A stretch of DNA of 56,204 nucleotides from an uncultured Planctomycetales bacterium. GTDB lineage: Bacteria; Planctomycetota; Phycisphaerae; UBA1845; Fen-1342. This document shows positions 159 through 17,298 of the stretch, piece by piece. Both the position numbers and the translations under genes were made by a program. Location: the NCBI GenBank assembly GCA_964647015.1, contig CAZYGM010000001.1, forward strand, positions 1 to 56,204, in the 5' to 3' direction. The notes beneath the pieces were generated by a model. That model searched no databases. It had not been told where the DNA came from and saw only the letters and a program-made list of their open reading frames with translations. Positions within the stretch are counted from its first letter, which is position 1. The number at the start of each line of letters is the position of its first letter.

Positions 159-836
159 TCAGGAATCATCGTGCGGGCAGTCCGGCGATTCGGCGGCAGC
201 GGGCGACTGGGCCAATGAGATCTCTTCGCCGCGCAGCAGGCGGCGAATGTTGCCGCGATGCCGCACGATGATCAGCACCCCCAGGAGCATGGCGCCGGCT
301 TGCAGCGGCCAGGCGTCACCCAACGACACGCCGCAAACGCGCAAGTAGGCCAGCAGGGCCAGGGGGAATACTATGGCGATGGTCAATGAGCCGAGCGAGA
401 TGAGGCCGGTTGTGAAGCGCACCAGGCCGTAGGCCACGAGCGCGATGAGCATGGCCACGGTGTAGTAGGGGTAGATGGCCACGGCCACGCCGACCGTCGT
501 GGCCACGCCCTTGCCGCCGCGGAAGCCGAGGTATACGGGGAAGACGTGGCCGAGCACGGCCGCGAGCCCGACCAGTAGCCAGCTCAACAGCCGTTCGGCC
601 GCCAGGTCACCGGGCAGAACCAGGCCGGCGGCGGCGACGGGCAACGCGCCTTTGAGGATATCGAGCGCGAGGCACAGGAGGCCCCACTTGCGGCCGAGCA
701 CGCGGCCGACGTTGGTTGCTCCGATGTTGCGGCTGCCGTGCAGGCGAATGTCGACGCCGCGCAGCCGGCCGAGGAGCAGCCCGAATGGGATCGCGCCGAT
801 GAGGTAGGCGGCCAGGACCAAGGAAGCAAGGATCAT
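159..836 (-). CDS. plsY: Glycerol-3-phosphate acyltransferase PlsY
   Basis: 225-aa polytopic membrane ORF. HGSRNIGATN and FRGGKGVAT match the PlsY signatures GSGN.GATN and FKGGKGVAT. Confidence 0.9.
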   Translation of the reverse strand: MILASLVLAAYLIGAIPFGLLLGRLRGVDIRLHGSRNIGATNVGRVLGRKWGLLCLALDILKGALPVAAAGLVLPGDLAAERLLSWLLVGLAAVLGHVFPVYLGFRGGKGVATTVGVAVAIYPYYTVAMLIALVAYGLVRFTTGLISLGSLTIAIVFPLALLAYLRVCGVSLGDAWPLQAGAMLLGVLIIVRHRGNIRRLLRGEEISLAQSPAAAESPDCPHDDS

Positions 837-907
837 CTGAGCAGCCGTAAAGGGACCTCGTTGGGGGCCGGCCTGGTTAGAGTTCCGGCGCCGTGGGAGT
901 CATGGGT

Positions 908-1126
908 TCAGGAATCGCGCGGCCGTTCGTGCGGTGCGGCGCGGTGGAGGCGCAGCCAGCCGGGCCGCAGGCGGTCGCGCAGCCAATCGGTCATGCGCAG
1001 GCCGAGGCCGCGGGTCTGCCGGCGGTACAGGTGGCGTGCGACGTCCGTGGGGCGGACGACGGCGCGGCGCCGGGCGGCCAGCCACGTCACGAATGTCCAG
1101 GCCCAGTCTGACCGGCGGGTCGGCAT
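908..1126 (-). CDS. Small Arg/Trp-rich hypothetical protein (72 aa)
   Basis: This is the C-terminal part of track ORF 908..1666. Its ATG lies 2 nt after the TGA of the upstream 202-aa gene (TGAccATG), and a GGGAG sits 8 nt upstream. No family recognised, and the composition could also be a spurious high-GC ORF. Confidence 0.3.
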   Translation of the reverse strand: MPTRRSDWAWTFVTWLAARRRAVVRPTDVARHLYRRQTRGLGLRMTDWLRDRLRPGWLRLHRAAPHERPRDS

Positions 1127-1128
1127 GG

Positions 1129-1737
1129 TCAGGCTCCCAGAGCGCGCTGGACCGGCAGTTTGACTGCGGCGAAGACCTCGTCCGCCGAACGGGCCGGGAT
1201 CTGCGCTGTTCCCCATAGCTGTTGCCGAGCCATGATCACGTGCGGCGCGGCGTAGAAGTTGGTCACGTGGCTGATGCCGCCCTCGGCCAGATCGCCGCCG
1301 GCGTAGTCCAGCGCGAGGAGCCAGGAGCCGACGTCCTCGTCGTATTCGGCGGGGAAGATCAAGGCGGTGACGAACGGGCCGGTCGCGGTGGCGCCGGTTT
1401 CGGCGAGTTGCAGGACCGCTCGGCAGGGTGGTGGGGTTTGCTCGGCGAGGCTGGCCAATTCCTTGAAGTCGCGGTGGGCCGCCGCCGACTCGCTGCGGTA
1501 GAAGAACAGGCCGCTTTCGAGCTGGAAGCGTTCGGGGGCAACGGCCTGCAGCTCCATGTTTCCGGCGGGATCGGCGCGGTGAATGCGGTAGACCTTGCCG
1601 TGGCGGTAGGTCTCCGACTCGAGGAGCATGGCGATCTCCTCGGAGGTGTAGCCGACCGCGGCCCATTCGCCGAAGTCAAAGACATATAGTCCCCGGTAGC
1701 GTGGGGCGTGTTCGAGTATTGGGAGCCTCATGGTCAC
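1129..1737 (-). CDS. Hypothetical protein (202 aa)
   Basis: Protein-like composition (MTMRLPILEHAPRYRGLYVFDFGEWAAVGYTSEEIAMLLE...). Same strand as plsY. No motif I can name. Confidence 0.55.
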   Translation of the reverse strand: MTMRLPILEHAPRYRGLYVFDFGEWAAVGYTSEEIAMLLESETYRHGKVYRIHRADPAGNMELQAVAPERFQLESGLFFYRSESAAAHRDFKELASLAEQTPPPCRAVLQLAETGATATGPFVTALIFPAEYDEDVGSWLLALDYAGGDLAEGGISHVTNFYAAPHVIMARQQLWGTAQIPARSADEVFAAVKLPVQRALGA

Positions 1738-1923
1738 TAGCTCCTAGCGTAGCGGCCGAGCGGGCGGCGTGCGGCGGGAACCGTCGGTGGGCCGCCCACC
1801 TTGGCGGACGAAAGGCTTCAAGGCGTTTCGCCGTTTAACGTCGGCCGGCCGCCCCGGCGGACGTGCCGACGGGTTTTCATTATACGATAGTAGTTTAGCG
1901 GCGTCAGTGGTTGGTTGGGCGGG

Positions 1924-1974
1924 AAAAAGGGGCGGGCGAGCCGAGCGTGGGCGTGGGCGGGACTCGGCTCGCCC
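1924..1974 (-). terminator. Putative intrinsic terminator downstream of the nrdR/ATP-cone pair
   Basis: Perfect 12-bp inverted repeat GGGCGAGCCGAG (1934-1945) / CTCGGCTCGCCC (1963-1974). On the minus strand a TTTTT run (1928-1924) follows after 5 nt. Confidence 0.4.
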
Positions 1975-2181
1975 TTCATCAGGGGAACGGAGGCTTGTGG
2001 GAGCCAGGAAAGCGGGCTCGCGACGGCAACACCAGGACTACCAACGGGGTGAACACCGATGCTGCACGTCATCCGTGAGCACGTCACGAGCTCCGGTCCA
2101 TCATGGTCGCGTCAAGGAACCGAACGTCGCTTTCCGGGCCGTGGCGCTGGTGGATCGCGACGGTCGGGCCTGACGCCTGAG

Positions 2182-2781
2182 TCAATCCTCCTGCGGGGGG
2201 CGGCGGCTGGCGAGTGACTGGGGTACCGCGGGTCGCGGCACGGCAGGCACGTGATCCAGCAACAGGCCCCAGGCCATAACTTCGTTGCGCAGCAGCTCGG
2301 CCACAAACGGCTTGGACAACAGCCGGTAGCCGAGGGCGAAAACTCGTTCTTCAACGGAAGCAGCCAGGAAGCGGGCCACCGCCTGGCGCAAGTCGTAGAC
2401 GCTTTGCAGCGTGGCGACGAGCGCGCCCTTGCGCCAGCGCACTGGTGGCCGTCCTGATTCGAGCGGGTCATACACCCGCACCTGTCGCCGCCGCGCCCAC
2501 CGCAGATGCCGATGGGCGATCAGGGCGTGTGCGGCGGCGTCCAAGCCAGTTTGACACAGCGCCGCCCGGGCGCAATTAAAGATGTAGTCAGCCGTGGGGG
2601 GGTCGTCGCCGGCAGTCTCACGCAGGTGCAACGCGACGGCCTGCGCCAAGGGGGCGGCCAGGCGCGGATCAGCGCCGGAGCCGGCCAGCGTCCGGGCCAG
2701 GCAACTGCGCAGTTTCTCCAGCGAGAAGCGTTCCAGCGTGCCGTCGCGTTTCGTGATGACGATCGACCTGTCCCGGCTCAT
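2182..2781 (-). CDS. Stand-alone ATP-cone domain protein
   Basis: The N-terminus IVITKRDGTLERFSLEKLRSCL fits the ATP-cone pattern (KRDG...F...KI). About 100 aa of unknown C-terminal region follow. The start overlaps the nrdR stop by 4 nt (ATGA). Confidence 0.7.
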   Translation of the reverse strand: MSRDRSIVITKRDGTLERFSLEKLRSCLARTLAGSGADPRLAAPLAQAVALHLRETAGDDPPTADYIFNCARAALCQTGLDAAAHALIAHRHLRWARRRQVRVYDPLESGRPPVRWRKGALVATLQSVYDLRQAVARFLAASVEERVFALGYRLLSKPFVAELLRNEVMAWGLLLDHVPAVPRPAVPQSLASRRPPQED

Positions 2782-3287
2782 GATTCCCGTGGTCCCTCGA
2801 AGAGGTCACCCTGTCCGGGGATGTCCTTGGCGGAGCGTTCGATCACGTCACGGGCCTCCTCGATGAACTCGCCGACATCCTCGAACTGTCGATACACACT
2901 GGCGAATCGCACGTACGCCACTTTGTCCACTCGCCGCAGCACCGCCGCAATTCGCTCGCCAATGGTCTGACTGGTGACCTCCTTCTCGAAGTGGCTGACC
3001 AGGTACTCTTCGACCTCGTCGACGATCTGCTCGATCCGTTCGGACGAAATGGGTCGCTTGTATGCGGCCCGCACGATGCCCTCCGTGATCTTCCCGCGAT
3101 CGTAGGGCACGCGCGAGTTGTCGCGCTTGATGACGGCCAGTCGGATGGTGTCCTCGATGTGCTCATAAGTCGTGAAACGTCGGCCACATGCCAAGCAACA
3201 ACGCCGCCGCCTGATCGACCGGCCGGCATCGGTCAAGCGCGAATCCACCACCTTGTCATCGTTGGCCTTACAGTACGGGCACCGCAT
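2778..3287 (-). CDS. nrdR: Transcriptional repressor NrdR
   Basis: MRCPYCKANDDKVVDSRL...RRRRCCLACGRRFTTYE zinc ribbon followed by an ATP-cone (VIKRDNSRVPYDRGKI). Canonical NrdR architecture. Confidence 0.95.
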   Translation of the reverse strand: MRCPYCKANDDKVVDSRLTDAGRSIRRRRCCLACGRRFTTYEHIEDTIRLAVIKRDNSRVPYDRGKITEGIVRAAYKRPISSERIEQIVDEVEEYLVSHFEKEVTSQTIGERIAAVLRRVDKVAYVRFASVYRQFEDVGEFIEEARDVIERSAKDIPGQGDLFEGPRES

Positions 3288-3511
3288 TTGGCTGGGCCCA
3301 AGATCGGTTCATCAGGCAGCACCGGCCGAACATGCCTCACGCCGCCGCGCCGAGGTGCTGGGACTTGTCCGCGCCCGAAAGCCCCATGCGGCCAGGCAGC
3401 AACCTACTACCGGTCGTCGATGGCGAGAGTGTAACGCACAACATAATGTGTGTCAACCAAAATTCGCGGAAACGCAAGACAATCTTCGACCGAGCTTGTA
3501 TAACGCCCGCC

Positions 3512-4402
3512 ATGGCACCAGCAGCAGCCGAGATTGAACACGGGGGGGTACGCATTCGCGGGTTCTCGCTGGCGGGCGAGGAAACATACTTCGTGCTGCC
3601 GGAACTCAACCTCGGCTTTGACGTGGGGCGCTGCCAGCGTGAAGTTCTCGCGGTTGACAACGTTTTCCTGAGCCACGGCCACATGGATCATGCCGCGGGC
3701 GTCGCCTATTACTTCTCGCAGCGACTCTTCATTGACAACCAGCCCGGGAACCTGTTCGCTCCAGAAGCCCTGGTGGAGCCGATCCGCAGGTTGCTGAAGG
3801 TCTGGGGCGATATCGACGGGCAGGAGCCGCCGGCGAACATTCATCCAGCCTACCCCGGCCAGGATATCACACTACGGCGCGACTTGATTGTCCGGCCCTT
3901 CGAGGTCAACCACCCGTGCCGGCGACGCATCGCGCCCATCGAAAGCCTGGGATTCGCCGCCATCGAGGTGCGGCACAAGCTGCTCGATGAGTATCAGCAA
4001 CTCACCGGTCCGCAACTGGTCGAGCTTAAGAAGCAGGGCGTCGCGATCACCCGGCGGCTGGAAATCCCCCTGGTGGCCTACTGCGGCGACACGGCGCCCG
4101 GCGCCTTCCTGGAGCTGGACTACGTACGCGACAGCAGAATCCTCCTGTTGGAATGCACCTTCGTGGAGCGTGATCACCGCGAGCGGGCGCGGGCCGGCTT
4201 CCACATGCACGTGAGTGATTTGCCGGCGATTGTGGCGCGGCTACGAAACGAGAAGATCGTGCTGTACCACCTGTCCCGCCGCACGGCGCTGAGTGACGCG
4301 CGCAAGATGCTCCAACGTGAGTTTGGCGGGAAAGTGGACGAGCGCGTGTGCTTCCTGATGGAGCATCGCCGGCGCAAGCGGCGTGAAGCGCCGCCGGCCT
4401 GA
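3512..4402 (+). CDS. MBL-fold metallo-hydrolase (RNase Z/ElaC-like)
   Basis: HGHMDH (HxHxDH) metal motif. I prefer the ATG at 3512 (MAPAAAEIEHGG...) over the track start at 3332, whose first 60 aa are Arg/Pro-rich and not protein-like. Confidence 0.7.
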   Translation: MAPAAAEIEHGGVRIRGFSLAGEETYFVLPELNLGFDVGRCQREVLAVDNVFLSHGHMDHAAGVAYYFSQRLFIDNQPGNLFAPEALVEPIRRLLKVWGDIDGQEPPANIHPAYPGQDITLRRDLIVRPFEVNHPCRRRIAPIESLGFAAIEVRHKLLDEYQQLTGPQLVELKKQGVAITRRLEIPLVAYCGDTAPGAFLELDYVRDSRILLLECTFVERDHRERARAGFHMHVSDLPAIVARLRNEKIVLYHLSRRTALSDARKMLQREFGGKVDERVCFLMEHRRRKRREAPPA

Positions 4403-4500
4403 CGGCGAGGACTCTGGGGGGCCTGTGGTCGTGCGAAGAGCAGGGGGCGCCCGCGGGCCCTGCCCGGCGAATTCCGTCCGAACCGGGCCGCCTCAAACGC

Positions 4501-5733
4501 TCAGCTCACGGCGGTATCGACGGCTTTGCGCTGGCCGCGGCTACCGAGGGCGGCGGCTTCCAGGGCCTGCTCCAGGTCGGCAATCAGGTCGTCGGGGTCT
4601 TCAATGCCCACGGACAGCCTGACGAGGCCGTCCGTGATATGGGCCTGTTCGCGGATTTCGGCGCCCATTGAGGCGTGTGTCATGCTGGCCGGGTGCTGAA
4701 TAAGGGACTCGACGCCGCCCAGACTTACGGCGAGCATCCACAGCTTGACGGCGTTCATCATGCTGCGGCCGGCCTCCAGCCCGCCGCGCAGGCCGAAGGA
4801 GATGACCGCGCCGCCGCCGGACGACTGGCGGCAGCCGAGTTCGTATTGAGGGTGATCCTTGAGTCCGGGGTAGCGCACCCACTCAACCCCTGGGTGAGCT
4901 GAGAGGTAGGCGGCGATCTTCTGGGCGACCTCGCAGTGCCGGCGCATGCGCAGGGCGAGTGTCTTGATTCCGCGGTGTACCAGGAAGGACTCGATGGGTG
5001 AGAGTACGCCGCCGAAGTGATTCAGGGCCCGGCGCATCTGGGGGTAGAACTGCTCGTCCTTGAGGACGATGATGCCGCCGACGACGTCGGCATGGCCGTT
5101 GAGGAACTTGGTGAGGCTGTGAATGACGATGTCGGCGCCGAATTCGAAGGGGCGCTGCAGGATCGGGCTCATGAAGGTGTTGTCGACGACGAGCAGGGCA
5201 CCGTGCTCGTGCGCCAGGGCGGCGACGGCCGACAGGTCGGTGATGACGAGGGTGGGGTTGCAGGGTGTCTCGACGTAGACCACCTTGGTATTGGGTCGCA
5301 TGGCGCGCCGGACGGCCTCGGTGTCGGAAGTGTCAACCAGGCTGGACTCGATGCCGAAGTCGGCCATGATGCTGCGGACCAGGGTGGCGGTGGGGCCGTA
5401 GACGGCTTCGGAGCAGACGATGTGGTCGCCGTGTTTGACGAGGGCTGCGAGGGTGGTATGGATGGCCGCCATTCCGCTGCCGCAGGCTAGCGCGACGTGG
5501 CCGCCTTCCAGGGTGGCGACGGCGCGTTCGAGGGCCTCGACCGTCGGGTTGCCCATGCGGGAGTAGATGTAACCCTTGCGTTCGCCGGCGAAGAGCGCGG
5601 CGCCTTGCTGGGCGCTGTCGAATCCGAAGGTGGATACCTGGTAGATGGGCGGCACGGCCGCGCGAAATTCGTTTTTTCCCACTCCCGCATGCACTGCGAG
5701 CGTTTCGACCGCGTAGTCTTGTCCGTGAGTCAT
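4501..5733 (-). CDS. megL: Methionine gamma-lyase (Cys/Met-metabolism PLP enzyme family)
   Basis: YSRMGNPT, the PLP-lysine context SLTKFLNGHADVVGG, and the C-terminal AVSLGGVESLIQHPASMTHA...GLVRLSVGIEDPDDLIADL are close to the MGL/CGS family. Within the family it looks closest to MGL. Confidence 0.8.
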   Translation of the reverse strand: MTHGQDYAVETLAVHAGVGKNEFRAAVPPIYQVSTFGFDSAQQGAALFAGERKGYIYSRMGNPTVEALERAVATLEGGHVALACGSGMAAIHTTLAALVKHGDHIVCSEAVYGPTATLVRSIMADFGIESSLVDTSDTEAVRRAMRPNTKVVYVETPCNPTLVITDLSAVAALAHEHGALLVVDNTFMSPILQRPFEFGADIVIHSLTKFLNGHADVVGGIIVLKDEQFYPQMRRALNHFGGVLSPIESFLVHRGIKTLALRMRRHCEVAQKIAAYLSAHPGVEWVRYPGLKDHPQYELGCRQSSGGGAVISFGLRGGLEAGRSMMNAVKLWMLAVSLGGVESLIQHPASMTHASMGAEIREQAHITDGLVRLSVGIEDPDDLIADLEQALEAAALGSRGQRKAVDTAVS

Positions 5734-6045
5734 TCCGTCAGCCCTCGCAACCTGGAAACAAATGCCCCGGTCCGTCGCCTGGTTGACGGGCCAACAGGCA
5801 CAAGCAACACGTCACATCCCGCCTAAGAGCACTGGCAAACGCTGTGCCAATTCTCCAGTTGCCAGTGTACTCCGGAGGGGAGTTTTGCTCAAGGCGCGGC
5901 GGGGTGCGTGAAGAGCCGGGGTGGGAGGGGGCGTTGACCGGGTGCGGGGTGTTCGTCCTAATACGGGCAGGCAGCCGAGTGGCGCGGCAGGTGGCCTGAG
6001 TGATGGGCGTCCCGTCGCCGGCTTGGCAGTTGAAGGGAGTCAGTC

Positions 6046-7218
6046 GTGGCCGCTGGAGAGTCGAGCCCCCGGACGCGTACGGCGCGGCGCGATCGCGCCG
6101 CGGCCGGCAAGCGCATCGTCGAGATGGCCAAGAGCATCATTGCGCTCGTGCAGGCGGAACAGGATCCTTACGTTGATATTCCCTCGCGCACGCTGAGCAA
6201 CGTGCAGTTCAACGAGCAGAAGGGCATCATCGAGTTGCTGGACGGCAAGCAGCGCCGCTGCTTCTTCAGTCTGCTGGGCCGCCGCAAGGGCGAGGGTTCG
6301 CAGGCCAGGAAGTTCATGCAGACGGTGCGGGTGGCCGAGGTCTGCAAGCGGCTGATCGACGCGAACGACTCGACCAGCATTCGTGACCTGTTCTACAACC
6401 TCAAGGTGCCCATCAAGGTGGCGGACGGCCAGAGCAAGTCAAAGGAGCTGATCTTCGCCGAGCAGGCCGAATCCGACCCGATCATCGAGGATATCGAGGT
6501 GGCGGTCAGTGCTTTGCGGGAAGAGCTGGGGGTGCACGCCGAGACCAAGGGCGCGATGGTCGGGCCGATGACGATCGTGGACGACGGCGACACGATCAAC
6601 CTGGCGAACATGGGCTCCGGCGGCTGGGCGGTGCCGTCGATCGTCGAGCCGAACGTGATCCAGTTCAAGAAGCACGCGGCCAAGTACATCCTGCTGATTG
6701 AGAAGGGCGCCGTCTGGCAGCGGTTCAACAAGGATCGCTACTGGGAGAAGAACAAGTGCCTGATCGTGCATGGCGGAGGGCAGCCGCCGCGCGGCGTGCG
6801 CCGGCTGGTGTACCGGCTGCATAATGAGCTTAAGCTGCCGGTGTATGTGTTGGTCGACAACGATCCGTGGGGCTACTACATCTACAGCGTGCTGAAGCAG
6901 GGCTCGATCAACCTGGCCTTCGAGAGCCAGCGGATGGCCATTCCGGCGGCCCGTTTCATCGGGATGAGCAGCCAGGACGCCGAGCGTTTCAACCTGCCGG
7001 ACCACGTGGCGATGCCGCTGACGCCGGAGGATCGGCGGCGGGCGAAGGAGATCCGCAACTACCCGTGGTTCCAGTCGCGGGCCTGGCAGCGGGAGATCAA
7101 GTACATGGAAGCGCTGGGCAAGAAGCTGGAGTTGGAAGCGCTTTCGAACAAGCACTTCAGCTTCATCACGGAGGAGTACCTGCCGAAGAAGCTGAAGGAT
7201 AAGCGCTGGTTGGAGTGA
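6046..7218 (+). CDS. top6A: DNA topoisomerase VI subunit A (Spo11/Top6A family), archaeal type
   Basis: N-terminus IPSRTLSNVQFNEQKG. Catalytic Tyr motif SIRDLFYN (Tyr codon 6394-6396). Toprim Glu in LLIEKGAVWQRF. Metal site VLVDNDPWGYYI. Start is either GTG 6046 (GGGAG upstream) or ATG 6124. Confidence 0.85.
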   Translation: MAAGESSPRTRTARRDRAAAGKRIVEMAKSIIALVQAEQDPYVDIPSRTLSNVQFNEQKGIIELLDGKQRRCFFSLLGRRKGEGSQARKFMQTVRVAEVCKRLIDANDSTSIRDLFYNLKVPIKVADGQSKSKELIFAEQAESDPIIEDIEVAVSALREELGVHAETKGAMVGPMTIVDDGDTINLANMGSGGWAVPSIVEPNVIQFKKHAAKYILLIEKGAVWQRFNKDRYWEKNKCLIVHGGGQPPRGVRRLVYRLHNELKLPVYVLVDNDPWGYYIYSVLKQGSINLAFESQRMAIPAARFIGMSSQDAERFNLPDHVAMPLTPEDRRRAKEIRNYPWFQSRAWQREIKYMEALGKKLELEALSNKHFSFITEEYLPKKLKDKRWLE

Positions 7219-7298
7219 GCCGGGGTTCGGAGGCTGAAGGGGGACGCTTCAGTAGCCCAGCACTTTCGCTGCCAGGGACTTCCGCCTATCATGCCGCT

Positions 7299-7392
7299 GG
7301 CGATGGGGTCCGCCGTGAACCGCCCCGGGTGGGGCTGATGACTCCTGCCTGAGATTCTTGAGGCCACGGGCCCGGAATGGGCAGGAGTAGCC
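7299..7392 (+). promoter_or_regulatory. Fluoride riboswitch (crcB RNA motif) with SD-sequestering expression platform
   Basis: GGCGATGGGGTCCGCCGTGAACCGCCCCGGGTGGGGCTGATGACTCC (7299-7345) fits the crcB motif. Elements: GGCG...CGCC pseudoknot, P1 GGGGTC/GACTCC, P3 GCCCC-GGGT-GGGGC, conserved CTGATGA. CTCCTGCC (7342-7349) is the exact complement of GGCAGGAG (7380-7387), which contains the crcB SD. Confidence 0.85.
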
Positions 7393-7776
7393 ATGTGGAA
7401 GCTGTTTCTGATCTTCTTCGCGTCTGGGGCGGGCGGTCTGTTGCGTTACTCCGTTAGCGGCTGGATGCAACGGCTGGCCAATGGTTCGTTTCCCATCGGG
7501 ACATTGATCGTCAATCTGAGCGGCTGCCTGCTGGTGGGTTTCGTGGCGGCGGCGCTGACCGGCCGGGTGCTTATGCGTGAGGAGTATCGCGTGGCGCTGC
7601 TGATCGGCCTGCTGGGCGGCTACACCACCTTCTCGACTTTCGGCCTCGAGACGTTCGCCTTGCTGAACGGTGGTCAGGCGTGGCGAGCGCTGCTTAATGT
7701 CGCTGCCAGCGTGGTGCTGGGGTTGGCGGGCGTGTGGGCCGGTTACCGGTTGGCCGAGAACTGGCTGGGAGTCTGA
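7393..7776 (+). CDS. crcB: Fluoride ion channel CrcB/FluC
   Basis: 127 aa with 4 TM segments. GAGGLLRY, GTLIVNLSGC and GGYTTFSTF motifs. Directly downstream of the fluoride riboswitch. Confidence 0.95.
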   Translation: MWKLFLIFFASGAGGLLRYSVSGWMQRLANGSFPIGTLIVNLSGCLLVGFVAAALTGRVLMREEYRVALLIGLLGGYTTFSTFGLETFALLNGGQAWRALLNVAASVVLGLAGVWAGYRLAENWLGV

Positions 7777-7780
7777 CACC

Positions 7781-8119
7781 ATGAAGATCCCCGAAGACGG
7801 TTACCTGCTGCGCATCTTCATCGGCGAGAGCGACAAGTGGCAAGGCCAGCCACTGTATGAGGCGATTGTCCGCAGGGCGCGGGAGCTGCACCTGGCCGGT
7901 GCGACGGTCTTGCGTGGGCCGATGGGCTTCGGGGCCCACAGCCGCATGCATACCACGAAGATTCTGCGGCTGTCGGCCGACCTGCCGATCGTAATCGAGA
8001 TCGTTGACAGCCAGGAGAAGCTGGACGAGTTGATGCCGTTTATCGACGAGGCGGTGCAGGAAGGGCTGGTGACGCTGGAGCGCGTGCGCGTGATCAAGTA
8101 CCGGGCCGGCTCCGCGTAG
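7781..8119 (+). CDS. DUF190 domain protein (fluoride-operon associated)
   Basis: MKIPEDGYLLRIFIGESDKWQGQPLYEAIV... is typical of DUF190. The ATG at 7781 is 5 nt after the crcB stop. The track ORF start at 7670 overlaps crcB out of frame. Confidence 0.8.
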   Translation: MKIPEDGYLLRIFIGESDKWQGQPLYEAIVRRARELHLAGATVLRGPMGFGAHSRMHTTKILRLSADLPIVIEIVDSQEKLDELMPFIDEAVQEGLVTLERVRVIKYRAGSA

Positions 8120-8142
8120 ATGCGACACCGGGGGGCGAGAGC

Positions 8143-9084
8143 GTGGTTGCTCGCCTGTCGCGCGGCGTCGCAGGCTGGCCGGACAGAGTCAAAACGCGCC
8201 GCGGCCGGTGGAACGAGCAGGCGTCGGCCCCCGGGTTGCGTTGTTTCGTTGCAGGCAAAGGAACAGGTGTGGCTTGGCTCGAAGCTAATGGCACGATCGT
8301 TAGTCGTGACTGCCCGCTTTGTGGTGCCTCGGGTGGGCGAGAAGTCATGCGCAGCGCGGCTTGGCGGTTGCTGGAGTGCGGGTGCTGCGCGATGGTCTAC
8401 ATGCCCGAAATCCCGGCGCGGGAAGCGGCCGAGACCAGCTTCGACTGGGCCGGCTCATTCAAACGGGAGCGCATACGGCGCTGGCTGTCCAGCCCGTTTG
8501 CGCGACTCTGGACGGCCGCCTTCTTGGCCTTGAAGCCCAATCGCGAACGCCGCGCCCTGCGGCGCATTCGCCGCCACGCTCCGGCGGCCGGTCAGTTCCT
8601 TGACATCGGCGCCGGCGATGGCCGCCTCGCGGCGGCCGCCCAGGCCGCAGGATATGCGGTCACCTGCATCGAGCTTTCTCCGGTCATGGCAGCCAAAGCC
8701 GCCAGGCGCGTGGGGAATGCGCATGTTCTCGTCGGGCGTCTTGGGGACTTCGCGCTGGGACGTTTCCAGGTAGTGGTGGCGATCAGCATGCTTGAGCATG
8801 ACCCCGAGCCGGGCCGACTGCTGCGCATGGTCCGCGGCATACTCGATTTGGACGGCGTGCTCATCCTGAAAGTTCCGAATTTCGCCAGTTACCTGCGCCG
8901 CATACGGGGCAGGCGCTGGTCCGGATTTCGCTGGCCTGACCACGTCCAGTACTTCACTCCCGCCAGCCTGCGTCTGATGGTCGAACGCGCGGGTCTCGAA
9001 GTCACGTGGCTCGAAGCCAGGCCCCTGAGCGACAACATTTGGCTGGCGGCGCGTCATCCGCAAACAGCGGCCCTCTCCGACTGA
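8143..9084 (+). CDS. Class I SAM-dependent methyltransferase with N-terminal Cys4 motif
   Basis: SAM motif I FLDIGAGDGRLA, preceded by CPLCG...CGCC. A likelier start is GTG 8269 (AAGGA 6 nt upstream). Confidence 0.7.
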   Translation: MVARLSRGVAGWPDRVKTRRGRWNEQASAPGLRCFVAGKGTGVAWLEANGTIVSRDCPLCGASGGREVMRSAAWRLLECGCCAMVYMPEIPAREAAETSFDWAGSFKRERIRRWLSSPFARLWTAAFLALKPNRERRALRRIRRHAPAAGQFLDIGAGDGRLAAAAQAAGYAVTCIELSPVMAAKAARRVGNAHVLVGRLGDFALGRFQVVVAISMLEHDPEPGRLLRMVRGILDLDGVLILKVPNFASYLRRIRGRRWSGFRWPDHVQYFTPASLRLMVERAGLEVTWLEARPLSDNIWLAARHPQTAALSD

Positions 9085-9405
9085 CGCAGCGCGGAGCGGG
9101 CCGATACGTCGCGGCATCGCGCGCTGCGCGCGGCGGGCATGCCACCCCGACTGCAACCAGGCCGCCACCGCGCGGCGTCGCTTGCCCAGAAGCACCTGCA
9201 CGTTCGGCTCTCAAGGATGTGCTATTGGACCGGGCGCACTTGGCCCCTTGCAAGCGGCCGCCGCCGCCGCCAGAATGCCCACCGTTATGGAAGCGACCGA
9301 GAACACGCTTGACTCGGACGGCCTGCCTGGCCGACCGATGGTGCAGCACGCGTAGACGCCCGACGCGCCGGAGGAATCCCGTCGTCGGGCGGGAGACCAA
9401 CGGCC

Positions 9406-10728
9406 ATGCCTATTGATACCAGCGAATTCGACGCCGAGGCGCTGTACTCGACCTGGCCGGCGCTCTCAGACGAGGAGCGGGCGGAAGCCTTCGCGCTGCT
9501 CGCGGAAGAGGACGGGCAGAGCTTTTTCATTGGGCTGACGCCGGCGGACCGGGCGGCGTTGCTGGAGCATCTCCCCGATGCCAAGGCGGCGGTGTGGATG
9601 CGCTTCATGGCGCCGGATGACGCCGCTGACGTGCTGCAGGAGGCTGAGCCGGGGCAGCGGCAGCGGCTGCAGGCTATGCTGGACGGGGTTACGCAGCGCG
9701 AGGTGCAAGCGCTGCTGGCCTATGCCGAGGACGAGGCGGGCGGGTTGATGAGCCCGCGCTACGTGCGGCTGCGCCCCGATGTCACCGTGGAAGTCGCAAT
9801 CCGCTATCTGCGTCAGCAAATCCGCAACAACCCGGAAACGCTCTATTACGTGTACGTCCTGGATGCGGGGCAGCACCTGCAAGGAGTGATCTCGTTTCGC
9901 GAGCTGTTCAGCGCGCCGGGGGATGCGCTGGTGGCCGACGTGATGCGGCGGGACCCGGTCTGCGTGCAGGAATCCACGGACCAGGAAGAGGTGGCGCGTC
10001 TGATCGAGCAGCACGACCTGCTGGCCGTGCCGGTGGTGGATGAGGCTGGACGCGTGAAGGGCATTATCACCGTCGATGATATCGTTGACGTGATCAACGA
10101 GGAGGCCACCGAGGACATCCACAAGATCGGCGGTGTGGAAGCCCTCGATGCGCCCTATCTGGACGTAAGTCTGCCGATGATGATCAAGAAGCGCGGCGTG
10201 TGGCTGCTGGTCCTGTTCCTGGGCCAGACGCTGACGGCCACCACGATGGGCTACTTTGAAGACGAGCTGGCGCAGGCGCTGGTCCTGGCGGTGTTCGTGC
10301 CGCTCATTATCAGTAGCGGCGGCAACTCAGGGTCGCAGGCGGCGACGCTGGTTATTCGCGCCATGGCGCTGGCGGAAATCCGCTTGCGTGACTGGTGGCG
10401 CGTCATGCGCCGCGAAGTGGCTTCGGGCCTGATGCTCGGGACGGGTTTGGGCCTGGTCGGCTTCCTGCGCATAGTGCTGTGGCAACGATTGGGCTGGGCG
10501 GACTACGGGCCGCATTTCGTGCTGGTCGGCCTGACGGTTTGGCTGAGCCTGGTTGGGGTGGCGTGTCTGGGGACGGTGACCGGGAGCATGCTGCCGTTCC
10601 TGCTGCGGTTGTTGCGGCTGGACCCGGCGGCCAGCTCGGCCCCGTTCGTCGCGACGCTGGTGGACGTAAGTGGGTTGGTGATCTACTTTACGATTGCGGC
10701 GGCCGTGCTGCATGGGACGCTGCTGTGA
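9406..10728 (+). CDS. mgtE: Magnesium transporter MgtE
   Basis: MgtE N-domain, two CBS repeats, and a C-terminal TM domain with IISSGGNSGSQAATLVIRAMAL. Confidence 0.95.
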   Translation: MPIDTSEFDAEALYSTWPALSDEERAEAFALLAEEDGQSFFIGLTPADRAALLEHLPDAKAAVWMRFMAPDDAADVLQEAEPGQRQRLQAMLDGVTQREVQALLAYAEDEAGGLMSPRYVRLRPDVTVEVAIRYLRQQIRNNPETLYYVYVLDAGQHLQGVISFRELFSAPGDALVADVMRRDPVCVQESTDQEEVARLIEQHDLLAVPVVDEAGRVKGIITVDDIVDVINEEATEDIHKIGGVEALDAPYLDVSLPMMIKKRGVWLLVLFLGQTLTATTMGYFEDELAQALVLAVFVPLIISSGGNSGSQAATLVIRAMALAEIRLRDWWRVMRREVASGLMLGTGLGLVGFLRIVLWQRLGWADYGPHFVLVGLTVWLSLVGVACLGTVTGSMLPFLLRLLRLDPAASSAPFVATLVDVSGLVIYFTIAAAVLHGTLL

Positions 10729-10890
10729 CGGGCGATTCCGGCGGGTAGACTGGCGGCTGGGTAGCCCGGGCCAGGGTGGCCTGGAAATCGCGGTCACGGG
10801 TGTGCGGGTGACTATTTGCGGTAAACATCTGGTGGGTAGTAACTTGTGGACGCGCCGTCGGGTTTTTTGTAGCGGCGTTGGCGATTGAGC

Positions 10891-10924
10891 TTGACTAATG
10901 GAAAAGTGATGGCATAATTGCCAT
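10891..10924 (+). promoter_or_regulatory. Sigma70-like promoter with overlapping palindromic operator of the ars operon
   Basis: TTGACT (10891-10896), 17-nt spacer, ATAATT (10914-10919). The perfect palindrome ATGGCA-TAAT-TGCCAT (10909-10924) covers the -10 box. Confidence 0.55.
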
Positions 10925-10942
10925 ATGCCGATAGAGGAGCGG

Positions 10943-11263
10943 ATGAAGTACTCGAAGGTTCAGTATGAGGCGCGGGCGCGGGTCGCCAAGGCGCTGGCTC
11001 ATCCGAGCCGGCTGATAATCCTGGATGCGATTGCGGACGGTGAGCGGTGCGTGTGTGAGTTGACCGAGCTCGTTGGCGCGGACCAATCCACGGTCTCCAA
11101 GCACCTGGCGATCTTGAAGCAGGCCGGGATCATCGATGACCGCAAAGAAGGCTCCAAGACGTTCTACCGACCAAGAATCTGCTGTCTGAAAGGACTTTGG
11201 GAATGCATCGAGGCGGTGCTGAGGGAAAACCTGAAGGCACAGCAGGAGGCGATGGGGCATTGA
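10943..11263 (+). CDS. arsR: ArsR/SmtB family metalloregulator
   Basis: The wHTH carries a CVC metal site: ERCVCELTELVGADQSTVSKHLAILKQAGII. The ATG at 10943 follows GAGGAG. The track start at 10925 would lie at or upstream of the predicted transcription start. Confidence 0.85.
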   Translation: MKYSKVQYEARARVAKALAHPSRLIILDAIADGERCVCELTELVGADQSTVSKHLAILKQAGIIDDRKEGSKTFYRPRICCLKGLWECIEAVLRENLKAQQEAMGH

Positions 11264-11298
11264 GCTCCGCGGCTTTTTCTGCGCCCGGCCATGGTGAG

Positions 11299-12534
11299 AT
11301 GGTCATGTCGCCATCATCGCAGCGGCTGTCGCCCGAGACGCTGCGGACGCTCGCGATCTTGGGTGTGATGGTCGTCGTCTTCCTGCTGGCGTACCTGTCG
11401 CCGTTCCAGGCGTTGCCGGGCGGCGGGCCGCGGATCGTGACGGCGGGGCGTGAAGCCCTGCTGATGCTCCAGGATTACGCGCAGCACCACGTGATTCTGT
11501 GCCTGGTGCCGGCACTCTTCATCGCCGGTGCGATTTCCTGCTTCGTCTCGCAGGCCGCGGTGATGAAGTACCTGGGGCCGACGGCGAACAAGCTCTTGGC
11601 TTATGGCGTGGCTTCGGTATCCGGGACGATCCTGGCGGTTTGTTCGTGCACGGTGTTGCCGCTGTTCGCGGGGATCTGGACGCGCGGTGCGGGGCTGGGG
11701 CCGGCGGCGGCGTTTCTGTACTCCGGGCCAGCCATCAACGTGCTGGCGATCATACTGACGGCGCGCATCCTGGGCTGGGAGCTGGGCGTGGCCCGGGCCG
11801 GTGCCGCTATCGGGTTCAGCCTGATTGTCGGCCTGCTGATGCACTTGATCTACCGCAAGGAGGAGCGGGCCAAGGCGGAGGCAGCGAAGGCCGCCGGTGG
11901 GTTTGTCGTGCCGGATGGTACGGTGGAGCGGCCGCTATGGAAGACGGCCAGCTACTTCGGGGCCATGATCGGCATTCTCGTCTTCGCCAACTGGGCCCGG
12001 CCGGCGGCGCCGAACGCCGTTTGGGAGGCCCTGTTCGCCGCCAAGTGGGTCATCACCGGCGTGTTGCTGGTGGCACTGGCGGCGATGCTCAGGTTCTGGT
12101 TCACGCGGGCGGAGCTGAAGCAGTGGGTGGGCAGCACGTGGTTCTTCACGAAGCAGATCATGCCGCTGCTGTTTATCGGCGTGCTGGTGTCCGGCGTGTT
12201 GTTGGGGCGTCCGGGGGAGGAAGCGTTGATCCCCAGTCGCTGGATCGAGCAATCGGTGGGCGGCAACAGCCTGGGGGCGAACTTCTTCGCCGCCTTTGCC
12301 GGCGCGCTGATGTATTTCGCGACGTTGACGGAAGTGCCGATTTTGCAGGGGCTGCTGGGCGCGGGAATGGGCCAGGGTCCGGCGCTGACGCTGCTGCTGG
12401 CGGGGCCGGCGTTGTCGCTGCCGAGCATGCTGGTGATCAGGTCGGTGGTGGGTACGCGCAAGATGTTGGTTTACGTGTTTCTGGTGGCGGTGCTCTCGGC
12501 GGTGGCGGGGCTGCTGTATGGCACGTTCGGGTAG
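11299..12534 (+). CDS. COG0701-type permease (ArsP-like)
   Basis: About 10 TM segments. AVCSCTVLPLF motif, the CxC typical of the ArsP/DUF318 permease family. The ATG at 11299 avoids overlap with arsR. Confidence 0.7.
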   Translation: MVMSPSSQRLSPETLRTLAILGVMVVVFLLAYLSPFQALPGGGPRIVTAGREALLMLQDYAQHHVILCLVPALFIAGAISCFVSQAAVMKYLGPTANKLLAYGVASVSGTILAVCSCTVLPLFAGIWTRGAGLGPAAAFLYSGPAINVLAIILTARILGWELGVARAGAAIGFSLIVGLLMHLIYRKEERAKAEAAKAAGGFVVPDGTVERPLWKTASYFGAMIGILVFANWARPAAPNAVWEALFAAKWVITGVLLVALAAMLRFWFTRAELKQWVGSTWFFTKQIMPLLFIGVLVSGVLLGRPGEEALIPSRWIEQSVGGNSLGANFFAAFAGALMYFATLTEVPILQGLLGAGMGQGPALTLLLAGPALSLPSMLVIRSVVGTRKMLVYVFLVAVLSAVAGLLYGTFG

Positions 12535-12554
12535 TCGTCTGACGAGGACACGAA

Positions 12555-12968
12555 ATGTCGGCAACACCAGGCGGATGTTGTGGCGGTGATGGCGAGACGC
12601 TGATTTTCACCTGTGCCGGCGCGGCCTACAGCGGACAGGTGGCGAATCGGGCCGGCGTGCAGCTCATGGAACAAGGAGCCGGCGGATTGTTTTGCATCGC
12701 GGCGGTTGCGGCGAACATCGGACAGAAGCTGGAGCGTGCCCGCACGGCGGCGCGGCGGGTCGCGCTCGACGGCTGCGAGGATCACTGCGTGCGCAAAGTG
12801 CTGGAGCGGGCCGGCCTGTCGGCGGACGTTCACGTCGTGCTGACGGACATTGGAATTGAGAAGAAGCCGGCGCAGCCGAACATGATCAGCGACGGGAAGA
12901 AGGTTGTTGAGGCGGTGAAGCAGGAGCTGGCCCGCGGCGCGCTGCCAGGGGCCGGCTGCTGTGGTTGA
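12555..12968 (+). CDS. DGC-domain putative zinc-binding protein
   Basis: IFTCAGAAYSGQ...ALDGCEDHC matches the DGC-domain signature. Cys-rich termini (GGCCGG, GAGCCG). Confidence 0.65.
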   Translation: MSATPGGCCGGDGETLIFTCAGAAYSGQVANRAGVQLMEQGAGGLFCIAAVAANIGQKLERARTAARRVALDGCEDHCVRKVLERAGLSADVHVVLTDIGIEKKPAQPNMISDGKKVVEAVKQELARGALPGAGCCG

Positions 12969-12995
12969 ACTGACATAGACAGGCAAAGGTGCCCC

Positions 12996-13241
12996 ATGAA
13001 GATTGAAGTGCTCGGAACCGGTTGTGCGAAGTGCAACATGCTGGAGGCGGTCGCCCGGACGGCGGCGGACAAGCTGGGCCTCGAGTATGAGCTGGTGCAC
13101 GTAAAGGACCTCGGCAAGATCGCGGCGTATGGCGTGATGATGACGCCGGCGCTGGTGATTGACGGTCAGGTGAAGCTGACGGGCAAAGTCCCGAGTGAAG
13201 CCGAGCTGGCCAACCTGCTGAGCAGCGCAGCCGGTGCTTAG
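12996..13241 (+). CDS. Small thioredoxin-fold protein (redox-active disulfide protein 2 family)
   Basis: 81 aa. MKIEVLGTGCAKCNML...MTPALVIDG is the typical GxGCxxC small thioredoxin found next to COG0701 permeases. Confidence 0.8.
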   Translation: MKIEVLGTGCAKCNMLEAVARTAADKLGLEYELVHVKDLGKIAAYGVMMTPALVIDGQVKLTGKVPSEAELANLLSSAAGA

Positions 13242-13257
13242 TATGGAGACGGTCGTG

Positions 13258-13824
13258 ATGCTGACAGTTCGAAAAACGCTGCCGATCGCAGCGCTGGTTG
13301 GGCTGGTACTGGTGCTGTCGGGTTGCGAGCGGACCCCGGCCGCCCCCGCGGACGGACCCGTCGTGGCAGGCCAGGCGGAGGCGCCGGCGCCTGCTGACGT
13401 TGAAACCCCGCAGACGCCGGTGGCCGAGGCGGCCGGCGCTGCGGCGGAGCCGACTCCGACGGTTGCGGCGGAGCCGGCGAGCAGCGCCGCCCCACGCGTC
13501 ATTGCGTATTACTTCCACCGGACGCTGCGTTGCGCGACCTGCCTGTTGATCGAGGAGCAATCGCGCGAAGCGCTGGAGCTTTCACACGGCGAGGAGTTGG
13601 ACTCCGGCCGGCTGGAGTGGCACGCGGTGAACATCGAAATGCCCGACAATGAGCACTTCGAGCAGGAGTACGGGGTGGAGGCGGCGGCGTTGGTGTTGGT
13701 CGAAATGGTCGGCGAGCAGGTGACGCGCTGGGAGATGCTGCCAGAGGTTTGGGACCTGGCCGAGCATCCGCATGAGCTGCAGGAGTATGTGACGATGGAG
13801 ACCGCCTTGTTCCTGGGCGGGTAG
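13258..13824 (+). CDS. Lipoprotein with thioredoxin-like CxxC domain (possibly ArsF-family)
   Basis: Lipobox LVLSGC, a Pro/Ala-rich linker, then IAYYFHRTLRCATCLLIEE (CxxC). The family name is from memory and unverified. Confidence 0.6.
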   Translation: MLTVRKTLPIAALVGLVLVLSGCERTPAAPADGPVVAGQAEAPAPADVETPQTPVAEAAGAAAEPTPTVAAEPASSAAPRVIAYYFHRTLRCATCLLIEEQSREALELSHGEELDSGRLEWHAVNIEMPDNEHFEQEYGVEAAALVLVEMVGEQVTRWEMLPEVWDLAEHPHELQEYVTMETALFLGG

Positions 13825-13898
13825 CCGGCGGCCCCAGGTAGTGCCCTCCATCGGGAGGCCCACGATTGTGTGAGTGCTGCTCGAGTGGTGACCCGACG

Positions 13899-14372
13899 AT
13901 GTTCTTTGCGCTGCTGGCTGCCGGCGGATTGCTGGCGGGCTGGATGGTTTTTCGAGGATTGAAGATGAAGGCTAACAACGTCCTGATCTTGGTCGCAGTG
14001 GTTGTGGTCGTGGCCGGCGTGGCGTGGTTTCAATCGTCGCGCGCGGGATCCAATCCCGATGCGGCGGGGACTGCCGGCGCGTCGGCGACGACGGCCAAGC
14101 TGCCGCGCGTCGTGGACCTGGGCTCTGACAAGTGTATTCCCTGCATACAGATGGCGCCGTTTCTCGCGGAACTGAAGCAGGAATACGCCGGCCGTGCGGT
14201 CATTGAGTTCATAGATGTTCGGAAGTACCCCGCGGCCGGCATACCCTACCAGATCCGCATCATCCCCACGCAGGTCTTCTTCGATGCAGAGGGCAACGAG
14301 GTTTGGCGGCATGAAGGGTTCCTGCCGAAGGAGCAGTTCGTCGCCAAGTTCGCCGAGATGGGAGTGAAGTAG
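13899..14372 (+). CDS. Membrane-anchored thioredoxin (TlpA-like)
   Basis: N-terminal hydrophobic anchors, then DLGSDKCIPCIQMAPFL (CxxC) and a cis-Pro region IIPTQVFFD. The start is uncertain (13866 or 13899). Confidence 0.75.
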   Translation: MFFALLAAGGLLAGWMVFRGLKMKANNVLILVAVVVVVAGVAWFQSSRAGSNPDAAGTAGASATTAKLPRVVDLGSDKCIPCIQMAPFLAELKQEYAGRAVIEFIDVRKYPAAGIPYQIRIIPTQVFFDAEGNEVWRHEGFLPKEQFVAKFAEMGVK

Positions 14373-15053
14373 ATGTTGGAGACGCTGGGCGCGAGGCTGG
14401 CCGAGGTAATCGAAACAAACTTCTGGTTGGCGCCGCTGGCCGCGCTGCTCGGCGGTCTGCTCACGGCGGCCAATCCGTGCGTGCTGGCCGCCGCGCCGCT
14501 GATGGTCGGGTACGTCGCCGGCCAGGAGAACAAGAGCGTCGGTCGCTCGTTCCTGCTGTCGCTCACGTTCGCGATCGGCCTGACGATCATGTTCGCACTG
14601 ATCTGGTTCGGCGTGTGGTCGGCCAGCACGCTCTTGCCGACGAAGTGGTGGGTTTACGTCGCGGCCGTCGTATGCTTCCTGATGGGGCTGCACCTACTAG
14701 GACTTCTGCACTTCACACTCCCGGTGCCGGCGGGCGTGAAGCCGAAACAGAAGGGCGTGATCGGGGCACTCCTGCTGGGGCTACTGTTCGGGCTGATCTC
14801 GCTGCCGTGCGCCGGTCCGGTGCTCGGGGCGCTGATCGTCGTTACCCCCCTGTACGGGATGATGTTCGGAGTTGTGCTGCTGATCGCGTACAGCCTGGGG
14901 CACTGCGGCCTGATCCTGGTCGGCGGGACGTCCATGGGCATGGTCCAGAAGCTGGCCGACTCGAAGGGCTGGAACGTCGGCGCGAACGTCTTGCGGCGCG
15001 TGGCGGGCGTGCTGATCATCGGCGTCGGTGTATGGGTGCTTATCTTCGCCTGA
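14373..15053 (+). CDS. ccdA: Cytochrome c biogenesis/thiol-disulfide transporter CcdA (DsbD core)
   Basis: 6 TM segments. The two half-site cysteines sit in ANPCVLAA and SLPCAGPVLG. The start abuts the thioredoxin stop codon. Confidence 0.85.
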   Translation: MLETLGARLAEVIETNFWLAPLAALLGGLLTAANPCVLAAAPLMVGYVAGQENKSVGRSFLLSLTFAIGLTIMFALIWFGVWSASTLLPTKWWVYVAAVVCFLMGLHLLGLLHFTLPVPAGVKPKQKGVIGALLLGLLFGLISLPCAGPVLGALIVVTPLYGMMFGVVLLIAYSLGHCGLILVGGTSMGMVQKLADSKGWNVGANVLRRVAGVLIIGVGVWVLIFA

Positions 15054-15117
15054 CGGGCGTGGCACGCCGAACGGAACCCGGCGTGTCGACCGCCCCGCAT
15101 GAGGAACGAGGTGCGAC

Positions 15118-15807
15118 ATGCCCGAGGACGTATCACGGCGTGGTTTTCTGAGGACGGTTGGGGCCGCCGTCGCGGCGGGGGCGGTGGCCGGCAGCGCTGC
15201 GCAGGCTGGCGAGGTCCCGCCGGGCGGGCGGAAGATCCGTGTGCTGGGGCTGGCGTGCAGCCCGCGGAAGGGCAAGACGACGGCCGCGGCGGTACGGGTG
15301 GCGCTGGACGCGGCGGCGAAAGTGAGCCCGGAGATAGAGGCGGAACTGATCGAGCTGGCCGGGCTGAACATCCCGGTCTTCGACCCGGTGAACCTTGACC
15401 AGGGTGACTTCGCCGCGCTGGCGCCCCGGCTGTCGGATCCGGCCGTGGGCGGCCTGATTATCGGAACGCCGGTGTACTTCAGCGGCATGTCGTCGCTGTG
15501 CAAGGCGTTCATCGACCAATGCATGGTATTTCGGCGTAACAACTTCGCGTTGAAGAACAAGGTGGGCGGGGTGGTGGCGGTCGGCGGGGTCCGCAACGGC
15601 GGACAGGAACTGGCGATCGAGTCGGTGCAGGCGGCGCTGATGTGCCAGGAGATGATCGTGGTTGGCGACGGCAGTCCGACGGCCCACACGGGCGCCACGG
15701 TTCTGAACGACGGCCAGGATGATATCTCGGGCGATGAGTTCGGCCTGAGCACGGCCCGCAACCTGGGCCGGCGCGTGGCCGAGGTGGCCCTGCAGATGGC
15801 GCGGTAG
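15118..15807 (+). CDS. Tat-signal NAD(P)H-dependent FMN reductase-family flavoprotein
   Basis: Twin-arginine signal SRRGFLRTVGAAVAAGAVAGSAAQA. FMN_red core: GLACSPRKGKTT, IIGTPVYFSGMS, VGGVRNGGQE. Confidence 0.75.
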   Translation: MPEDVSRRGFLRTVGAAVAAGAVAGSAAQAGEVPPGGRKIRVLGLACSPRKGKTTAAAVRVALDAAAKVSPEIEAELIELAGLNIPVFDPVNLDQGDFAALAPRLSDPAVGGLIIGTPVYFSGMSSLCKAFIDQCMVFRRNNFALKNKVGGVVAVGGVRNGGQELAIESVQAALMCQEMIVVGDGSPTAHTGATVLNDGQDDISGDEFGLSTARNLGRRVAEVALQMAR

Positions 15808-15858
15808 CAGGCGCGGCGCCGTGTGTGAGAACGCGCGTATGCTAGTGGAGCAGGTCTT

Positions 15859-16311
<453 letters not shown>

Positions 16312-16313
16312 CG

Positions 16314-17192
16314 ATGTCTGGTTCGTGTGATGAGAAGGATGGGCAGGCCGTACGCGAGCAGGTGCGCGCGGGCTATGCCGAAGTGGCGCGGGCGGGCGGG
16401 CTGGACGCGGCCGGCGCGGGTTCCGGCTGTTGTTCCGGCAAGTCCTGTTGCGGGCCGGCGGCCGGGGCGGCCGACGCGCTGGCGCAGAAGATCGGCTATG
16501 ACGAAGCCGAACTGGCCGCCTTGCCGGACGGGGCCAACATGGGGCTGTCGTGCGGCAATCCGACGGCCTTGGCGGCGCTCAAGCCGGGCGAAGTCGTGCT
16601 GGATCTTGGCAGCGGCGGCGGGTTCGATTGTTTTCTGGCCGGCCCGCGGGTCGGTCCGACCGGCCGCGTCATCGGCGTGGACATGACGCCGGAGATGGTG
16701 TCCAAGGCGCGGCACAACGTGGCGGCGTATCGCGCGCATAGCGGTCTGGACAACGTTGAGTTTCGGCTGGGGGAGATCGAGCATCTGCCGGTCGCGGACG
16801 GCAGTGTGGACGTGGTTATTTCGAACTGCGTCATCAATCTGTCGCCGGACAAGCGGCAGGTGTGGCGGGAGCTGGCGCGTGTGCTCAAGCCGGGCGGGCG
16901 GGTGGCGGTTTCAGACCTGGCGCTACTGCGGCCGCTGCCGGAGGAGGTGCGGGGCATGGTGGCGGCGCTGGTCGGCTGCATAGCCGGCGCGGTGCTCGTG
17001 GCGGATACGGAGCGTTTTGCCCGTGAGGCCGGCCTGACGGATATCCTCCTGGAGGAGAAGCCGGACTATGTCGCGCATATGACGAGCGTTGCGGACCCGC
17101 TCTATCAGAAGATCGTCGCGGCGCTGCCCGCGGCCGCGAAACTCGGCGACTATGTGACCAGTCTCGATATCTCCGCGCGCAAGCCGCGGTGA
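16314..17192 (+). CDS. arsM: Arsenite S-adenosylmethionine methyltransferase
   Basis: N-terminal Cys cluster [16 protein letters not shown] motif [13 protein letters not shown], and a conserved Cys in LVGCIAGA. Confidence 0.9.
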
Positions 17193-17298
17193 GCCCCGGG
17201 CCGGGCCACTCATCCTGACGCGTAGCGCGGGGTGGGACCGGGCTGATCCGAAAGCCGATCAAGCTGGCAACGAGCAGCGCTTGGCGAGGAAGAACGTA

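Follow-up and report, generated by a model that had tools for sequence, protein, structure and literature searches.

Topoisomerase VI (Topo VI) with both of its subunits has been reported from 17 bacterial families, five of which belong to the Planctomycetota, namely Sedimentisphaeraceae, Anaerohalosphaeraceae, Pirellulaceae, Lacipirellulaceae and Thermoguttaceae (Allen & Maxwell 2024, PMC11302465). The first two are families of the Phycisphaerae, and in all five gyrase is present and Topo IV absent (PMC11302465). An earlier review had put the number of bacteria with Topo VI at only three (PMC2647321); this count was probably the source of the premise, adopted in a preliminary description of the locus investigated here, that bacteria rarely possess Topo VI. 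The premise is out of date: a relative of the A subunit (Top6A) of this locus is encoded by at least 588 GTDB species representatives (one genome per species). The Topo VI family was known before, as were its presence in the Planctomycetota including the Phycisphaerae and its likely role.

The window, i.e. the whole stretch of DNA analysed, is one whole contig of 56,204 bp from a metagenome-assembled genome (MAG). Its Top6A resembles archaeal and bacterial Top6A (NF003333/PRK04342; structures 2ZBK_A, 2Q2E_A and 1D3Y) in domain order, in the catalytic tyrosine, glutamate and DxD residues and in the N-terminal segment. It differs from typical Top6A in gene order only, as top6B is not located immediately upstream, where it is found in most archaea and bacterial relatives. 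The enzyme comes from the same phylum as the Planctomycetota Topo VI of PMC11302465, and from the same class as the two Phycisphaerae families. Gene linkage is not discussed in that account, whereas the MAG lineage of the window has a split operon. With eukaryotic Spo11 the window protein shares a homologous 5Y-CAP and Toprim core and the same catalytic tyrosine motif. The partners of eukaryotic Spo11 are degenerate B-like (TopoVIB-like) proteins, and Spo11 breaks DNA without strand passage; in contrast, the clade of the window retains a canonical GHKL Top6B in which every ATP-binding motif is present. The window Top6A also recalls Mini-A (PMC7671362), another A-like protein whose gene has no adjacent B gene. 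Mini-A, however, lacks the N-terminal region and is carried by viruses and plasmids, whereas the window Top6A is full-length and chromosomal and is therefore not a Mini-A. Nor is it a Topo VIII, which is a fusion of B and A, as the window protein comprises 390 aa without a GHKL domain.

The preliminary description had regarded the gene as an orphan, which either encoded a Spo11-like enzyme working with a different partner or had its B gene located elsewhere. The analysis favoured the second possibility. With a probability of roughly 0.9, the gene encodes the A subunit of an ordinary Topo VI in a lineage with unlinked subunit genes, and its partner is located elsewhere in the genome.

The top6A gene and its product

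The gene and the segments of its product were as follows.

6034-6039 (+): Shine-Dalgarno-like AGGGAG, 6 nt 5' of the GTG, read from the sequence
6046-7218 (+): top6A, DNA topoisomerase VI subunit A, 390 aa, GTG start, from the ORF map
Residues 1-26: variable, arginine-rich tail
Residues about 27-87: N-terminal segment, counterpart of the Top6B-binding region in solved Top6A
Residues 88-163: 5Y-CAP/winged-helix domain with Tyr117 (Pfam TP6A_N PF04406, 8e-16)
Residues 169-211: all-beta domain (Pfam Topo_VI_alpha PF20768, 1e-5)
Residues 214-383: Toprim domain with Glu219 and Asp271/Asp273 (Pfam TOP6A-Spo11_Toprim PF21180, 1.6e-59)

The position of AGGGAG before the GTG supports 6046 as the start of top6A, and the relatives P0002-P0006 are likewise 390 aa in length. 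Assignment to the Top6A/Spo11 family, as proposed in the preliminary description, was borne out by the three Pfam domains, of which the Toprim match spans the whole profile (positions 1-170 of 170), and by the NCBIfam equivalog NF003333, against which the protein scored 512.6 bits (cutoff 465). Solved Top6A structures were matched over nearly the full length: S. shibatae 2zbk_A over residues 34-388 (6e-70), M. mazei 2q2e_A over residues 9-386 (2e-49) and M. jannaschii 1D3Y essentially over the full length (5e-48). All catalytic motifs quoted previously were present, i.e. RDLFY with Tyr117, IEKGAV with Glu219 and VDNDPWG with Asp271/Asp273, as was IPSRTLSN at residue 45 in the N-terminal segment. 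In the alignment to 2zbk_A, Tyr117 of RDLFY fell on the tyrosine motif RDLYY. Across 120 homologues, 197 of the 390 positions were at least 99% invariant; among them were Tyr117, Glu219, Asp271 and Asp273, each of which was invariant. Judged by its sequence, the Top6A encoded at 6046-7218 (+) is complete and catalytically intact.

It was also observed that NF003333 is labelled 'DNA topoisomerase IV subunit A' in its curated product name, although the family is Topo VI-A. This misnomer has reached GenBank annotations of MAGs (P0016, P0046, P0071, P0078 and P0099) and could hide Topo VI from text searches.

Conservation among the 120 homologues was 0.84 in residues 27-87, 0.87 in the CAP domain and 0.91 in the Toprim domain. 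Residues 27-87 correspond to the part of Top6A that is wrapped around the transducer helix of Top6B in the 2Q2E and 2ZBK holoenzymes. Conservation of this segment would be as expected if the subunit still associates with its partner. Comparison of the window gene with five relatives gave dN/dS values of 0.046-0.169, indicating strong purifying selection; towards the two nearest relatives, which are of the same species, dN/dS was about 0.05 at a dS of about 0.2. These low values, together with the intact reading frame and the invariant catalytic residues, make it barely conceivable that top6A is a non-functional remnant decaying after loss of top6B, a reading whose sole support is that the window contains no top6B.

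Neighbourhood of top6A in the window

Flanking features of top6A are given below.

4501-5733 (-): Cys/Met-metabolism PLP-dependent enzyme, methionine gamma-lyase-like (ORF; the syntenic gene of the nearest relative matches PF01053 Cys_Met_Meta_PP)
5734-6045: divergent intergenic region of 312 bp between the PLP-enzyme gene (-) and top6A (+), from the ORF map
7290-7354 (+): fluoride riboswitch (Rfam RF01734, 55.9 bits; gathering score 34)
7393-7776: crcB, downstream of the fluoride riboswitch (CRCB Pfam match on the syntenic gene of the nearest relative)
7781-8119: DUF190 gene (DUF190 Pfam match on the syntenic gene of the nearest relative)

The nearest relative is locus L001 (assembly GCA_030153525.1, contig JASEKR010000062.1), which is syntenic with the window over 17.2 kb at 96% DNA identity. 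The two neighbours named in the preliminary description, the divergent methionine gamma-lyase-like gene and the fluoride riboswitch, were thus both recovered. At the matching position of the contig of L012, a MAG locus with an 83% identical Top6A, the PLP-enzyme gene was missing, so its adjacency to top6A is not conserved. The divergent region presumably holds the promoters of both top6A and the PLP-enzyme gene; no match to the sigma-70 consensus was found in 5734-6045, a consensus that is not informative for Planctomycetota. The fluoride riboswitch controls crcB and the DUF190 gene and belongs to a separate regulatory unit starting 72 nt past the top6A stop. An intrinsic terminator was not predicted between 7218 and 7290.

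On the other side of the PLP-enzyme gene, the NrdR gene (2778-3287, -) overlaps a second gene encoding an ATP-cone only (2182-2781, -). A gene of the MBL fold lies beside this pair (2182-4402 in all), and its relative in L001 matches Pfam Anti-Pycsar_Apyc1 and Lactamase_B_2. The order NrdR-MBL-top6A was common to the species of the window and the L012 MAG, and the genes around top6A are housekeeping genes.

Several more distant features of the window were also recorded. A partial type VI secretion (T6SS) membrane-complex cluster occupies 23268-31408 (+).

23268-24632 (+): TssK/VasE
24642-25457 (+): DotU/TssL
25505-30358 (+): IcmF/TssM-like protein, 1617 aa
30419-31408 (+): gene with a weak TagF_N match

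Genes for the T6SS sheath, Hcp and VgrG were not found among the window ORFs scanned. Three successive genes at 38149-43009 (-) encode DUF11/CARDB/Chlam_OMP6-like repeat proteins (266, 523 and 767 aa), which are probably located at the cell surface. A tyrosine recombinase with Phage_integrase and SAM-like N-terminal domains is encoded at 55249-56202 (-), in an ORF that runs off the contig end.

Top6B was searched for in the window with several probes. The Top6B sequence of S. shibatae (528 of 530 residues identical to 2ZBK_B) yielded no Top6B in tblastn against all six frames (best E=3.1), and with five Top6B proteins from the subclade of the window itself no match was better than E=0.13. Twenty further window ORFs scanned against Pfam showed no GHKL domain, and none was annotated by Pfam in the syntenic L001 genes (window positions 159-17192). 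The earlier statement that no GHKL ATPase is encoded in the window therefore held. An adjacent top6B-top6A operon, which is usual for Topo VI without defining it, is not present, as no top6B was found in the 6 kb upstream or the 49 kb downstream of top6A. An ORF of 672 aa (52665-54680, -) without a confident Pfam match was evaluated as a possible divergent partner resembling Top6B and rejected; its only, weak matches were SurA/PpiD-like, and it showed no similarity to Top6B. Because the window is a single 56-kb contig, a missing Top6B says little about the rest of the genome.

That top6A might belong to a mobile relative of the type IIB enzymes, either a Mini-A or a fragment of a Topo VIII carried on an integrated element, is scarcely credible. 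Mini-A likewise consists of 5Y-CAP and Toprim domains without a nearby B gene (PMC7671362), and the tyrosine recombinase is located at the far end of the contig (55249-56202); the recombinase, however, is 48 kb away from top6A, and the neighbours of top6A are housekeeping genes. The protein is full-length, passes the Top6A equivalog and possesses both the N-terminal region and the all-beta domain. The GC content and GC3 of top6A match those of the surrounding genes: its GC3 of 0.90 is typical for coding frames in this contig, which has a GC content of 64-69%. In addition, synteny with the same-species relative extends over 17 kb, and the order NrdR-MBL-top6A is retained in the 83% relative.

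Gene order of top6A and top6B in the relatives

Thousands of relatives of the window Top6A were found. The best 120 were 77-98% identical to it and came from MAGs labelled Planctomycetota, Phycisphaerae or Phycisphaerales. Among GTDB species, the loci of the best 80 (of at least 588) belonged to Phycisphaerae, Tepidisphaerales, Pirellulales, Acidobacteriota (Thermoanaerobaculia and Ca. Multivorans), Nitrospirales, Myxococcota and Fibrobacteria, and also included two archaea. The ±10 kb flanks of these 80 loci were screened with Top6B probes. Where Top6A was at most 64% identical to that of the window, top6B was located directly upstream on the same strand in 57 of 62 loci, with gaps of 39-4313 nt, mostly below 500 nt, which represents the classic operon. 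Where Top6A was 67-98% identical, the usual upstream top6B was present in none of 18 loci. The 96% identical relative was among those in which no top6B was found within 10 kb upstream of top6A, and L018 (73%) was the only one of the 18 split loci with a top6B within 10 kb, 2.3 kb downstream.

As a separate observation, MAG CAZZFA01 contained two separate top6B-top6A operons, L055 on contig 25 and L069 on contig 9, with Top6A 55% and 54% identical to that of the window; these might be paralogues or the result of a mixed bin.

A neighbour-joining tree of Top6A, in which 17 of the 18 split-type sequences (those longer than 300 aa) were included, placed the window sequence and these 17 in one exclusive clade. 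Since an upstream top6B was lacking in all 18 loci and the sequences form an exclusive clade, the simplest reading of the sequences is that an ancestral top6B-top6A operon would have been broken once, at the base of the Phycisphaerae lineage of the window. The reciprocal test was carried out from the B side with 80 Top6B-centred metagenome loci. The three top6B loci closest to the subclade (71-76% identical to the Top6B P0187) had no top6A in the available flank, and most of the remoter loci with enough flank had top6A immediately downstream.

Using first the Top6B of L018 and then P0187 as queries, and looking up contigs by exact protein, both subunits were traced in four more members of the split clade, which together with L018 makes five genomes. 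These five pairs were reached by starting from Top6B and do not imply that B is retained in every genome of the clade. In L018, an unannotated ORF of 268 aa (11284-12090) and an ORF of 297 aa (12175-13068, -) lie between top6A and top6B; the latter ORF occupies the position at which usp stands upstream of top6B in L087, L093 and L094. In L012 (83%), the two genes are on the same contig (CAXXTC010000003.1), joined through an identical overlap of 826/826 bp, and are 15.2 kb apart: top6B, encoding P0187, at 20314-22398 (-) and top6A at 37573-38712 (+). In the remaining three genomes the genes are on separate contigs, with top6A and the gene for P0182 on contigs 9 and 15 of MAG CAYXTR01 (L009, 83%), top6A and the gene for P0161 on contigs 59 and 74 of MAG DAIMSQ01 (L014, 81%), and top6A and the gene for P0134 on contigs 16 and 1 of MAG AMX-MBFR-47, BTUU01 (L021, 67%). 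All five Top6B proteins, that of L018 included, passed NCBIfam NF003218 and TIGR01052 by wide margins, and the N-box, G1, G2, switch-lysine and RFANRVPL transducer motifs were kept in every one of them. The neighbourhood of top6B also recurs within the split clade, where the gene is often divergent from yhbY and usp.

Some further features of these B subunits and their loci were noted. In L018 (13488-18560), top6B is convergent with gyrB (15990-18560, -); genes for Topo VI and gyrase are also adjacent in haloarchaea and Methanosarcina (PMC2647321). The Top6B proteins P0187, P0182, P0161, P0121 and P0134, 647-780 aa in length, have, in front of the GHKL domain, an N-terminal extension of about 70-150 aa that is poorly conserved; the match to NF003218 begins at residue 70-150. 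The Top6B clusters P0201 and P0143 (670 and 697 aa; NCBI) each have a longest contig of exactly 5936 bp, which might be a coincidence or might mean that a single short contig carries both genes.

A Top6B from the species of the window itself was not found among the roughly 135 Top6B clusters listed, a result attributable to the fact that only the best 120 Top6B matches were listed, nor was it found in a metagenome scan with P0187. Near-identity in DNA to the window, to L001-L003 or to L007 was seen for none of the Top6B-bearing loci. The candidates P0171, P0172, P0150, P0236 and P0169, selected by similarity and source pattern, were discarded, as the assemblies and samples they come from are different or unlinked ones and include neither GCA_030153525.1 nor the Logan runs with the 98% identical Top6A, and grouping of near-identical Top6B clusters pointed to the DAIMSQ01 MAG and not to the species of the window. 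Mirror-tree matching of A and B was given up, as identities among the Top6B proteins level off at 69-74% inside the split clade.

These results also bear on the possibility that the species has lost top6B and that its Top6A acts as a stand-alone, Spo11-like DNA breaker, alone or with a partner lacking GHKL. Such a loss would account for the absence of Top6B from the 56-kb window and from the 10 kb upstream of top6A in the 96% identical relative, as well as for the failure to identify a same-species Top6B among the listed clusters. It is nevertheless very unlikely, since five genomes of the same monophyletic clade keep a motif-complete Top6B, and since the segment to which Top6B is bound in solved structures is as conserved as the catalytic core. 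Moreover, no alternative partner is conserved beside top6A, where the neighbours vary between relatives. Of the two possibilities raised in the preliminary description, a Spo11-like enzyme with a different partner, and with it the designation as an orphan, thus found no support. A B gene located elsewhere was supported at clade level by the five genomes, in which top6B occupies an unlinked or loosely linked locus. A canonical top6B elsewhere in the genome (five genomes) and split loci as a common state of the clade (18 loci) were the very findings named beforehand as arguing for an ordinary Topo VI, and the gene is accordingly better described as unlinked than as orphan. The genome of the window would, by analogy with its clade, be expected to possess a top6B as well.

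Proposed function and implications

Under the preferred reading of an ordinary Topo VI with unlinked subunit genes, the window Top6A would be the DNA cleavage and religation subunit of a canonical A2B2 type IIB topoisomerase. Tyr117 of the 5Y-CAP domain is predicted to attack the DNA backbone, while Glu219 and Asp271/Asp273 of the Toprim domain would hold Mg2+. The transducer helix of Top6B, the GHKL ATPase subunit, would be the docking site of the N-terminal segment, and Top6B would drive strand passage and so lead to ATP-dependent relaxation and decatenation by the window Topo VI. The top6B gene of this enzyme would be located at a locus of its own, possibly divergent from yhbY and usp as is often seen in the clade, and outside the 56-kb contig. 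Other Planctomycetota with Topo VI possess gyrase but no Topo IV, and by analogy with these the window enzyme is probably the decatenase and relaxase of its cell, in place of Topo IV.

The single new detail is a modest one: one lineage of the Phycisphaerae appears to have split top6B-top6A once and to have kept both genes at separate loci. A gene that is missing from a contig, or from beside top6A, may still be present in the genome, and the split therefore calls for caution in annotation pipelines and in screens for orphan genes on MAG contigs. The split loci also show that co-transcription is not needed for the two subunits of Topo VI.
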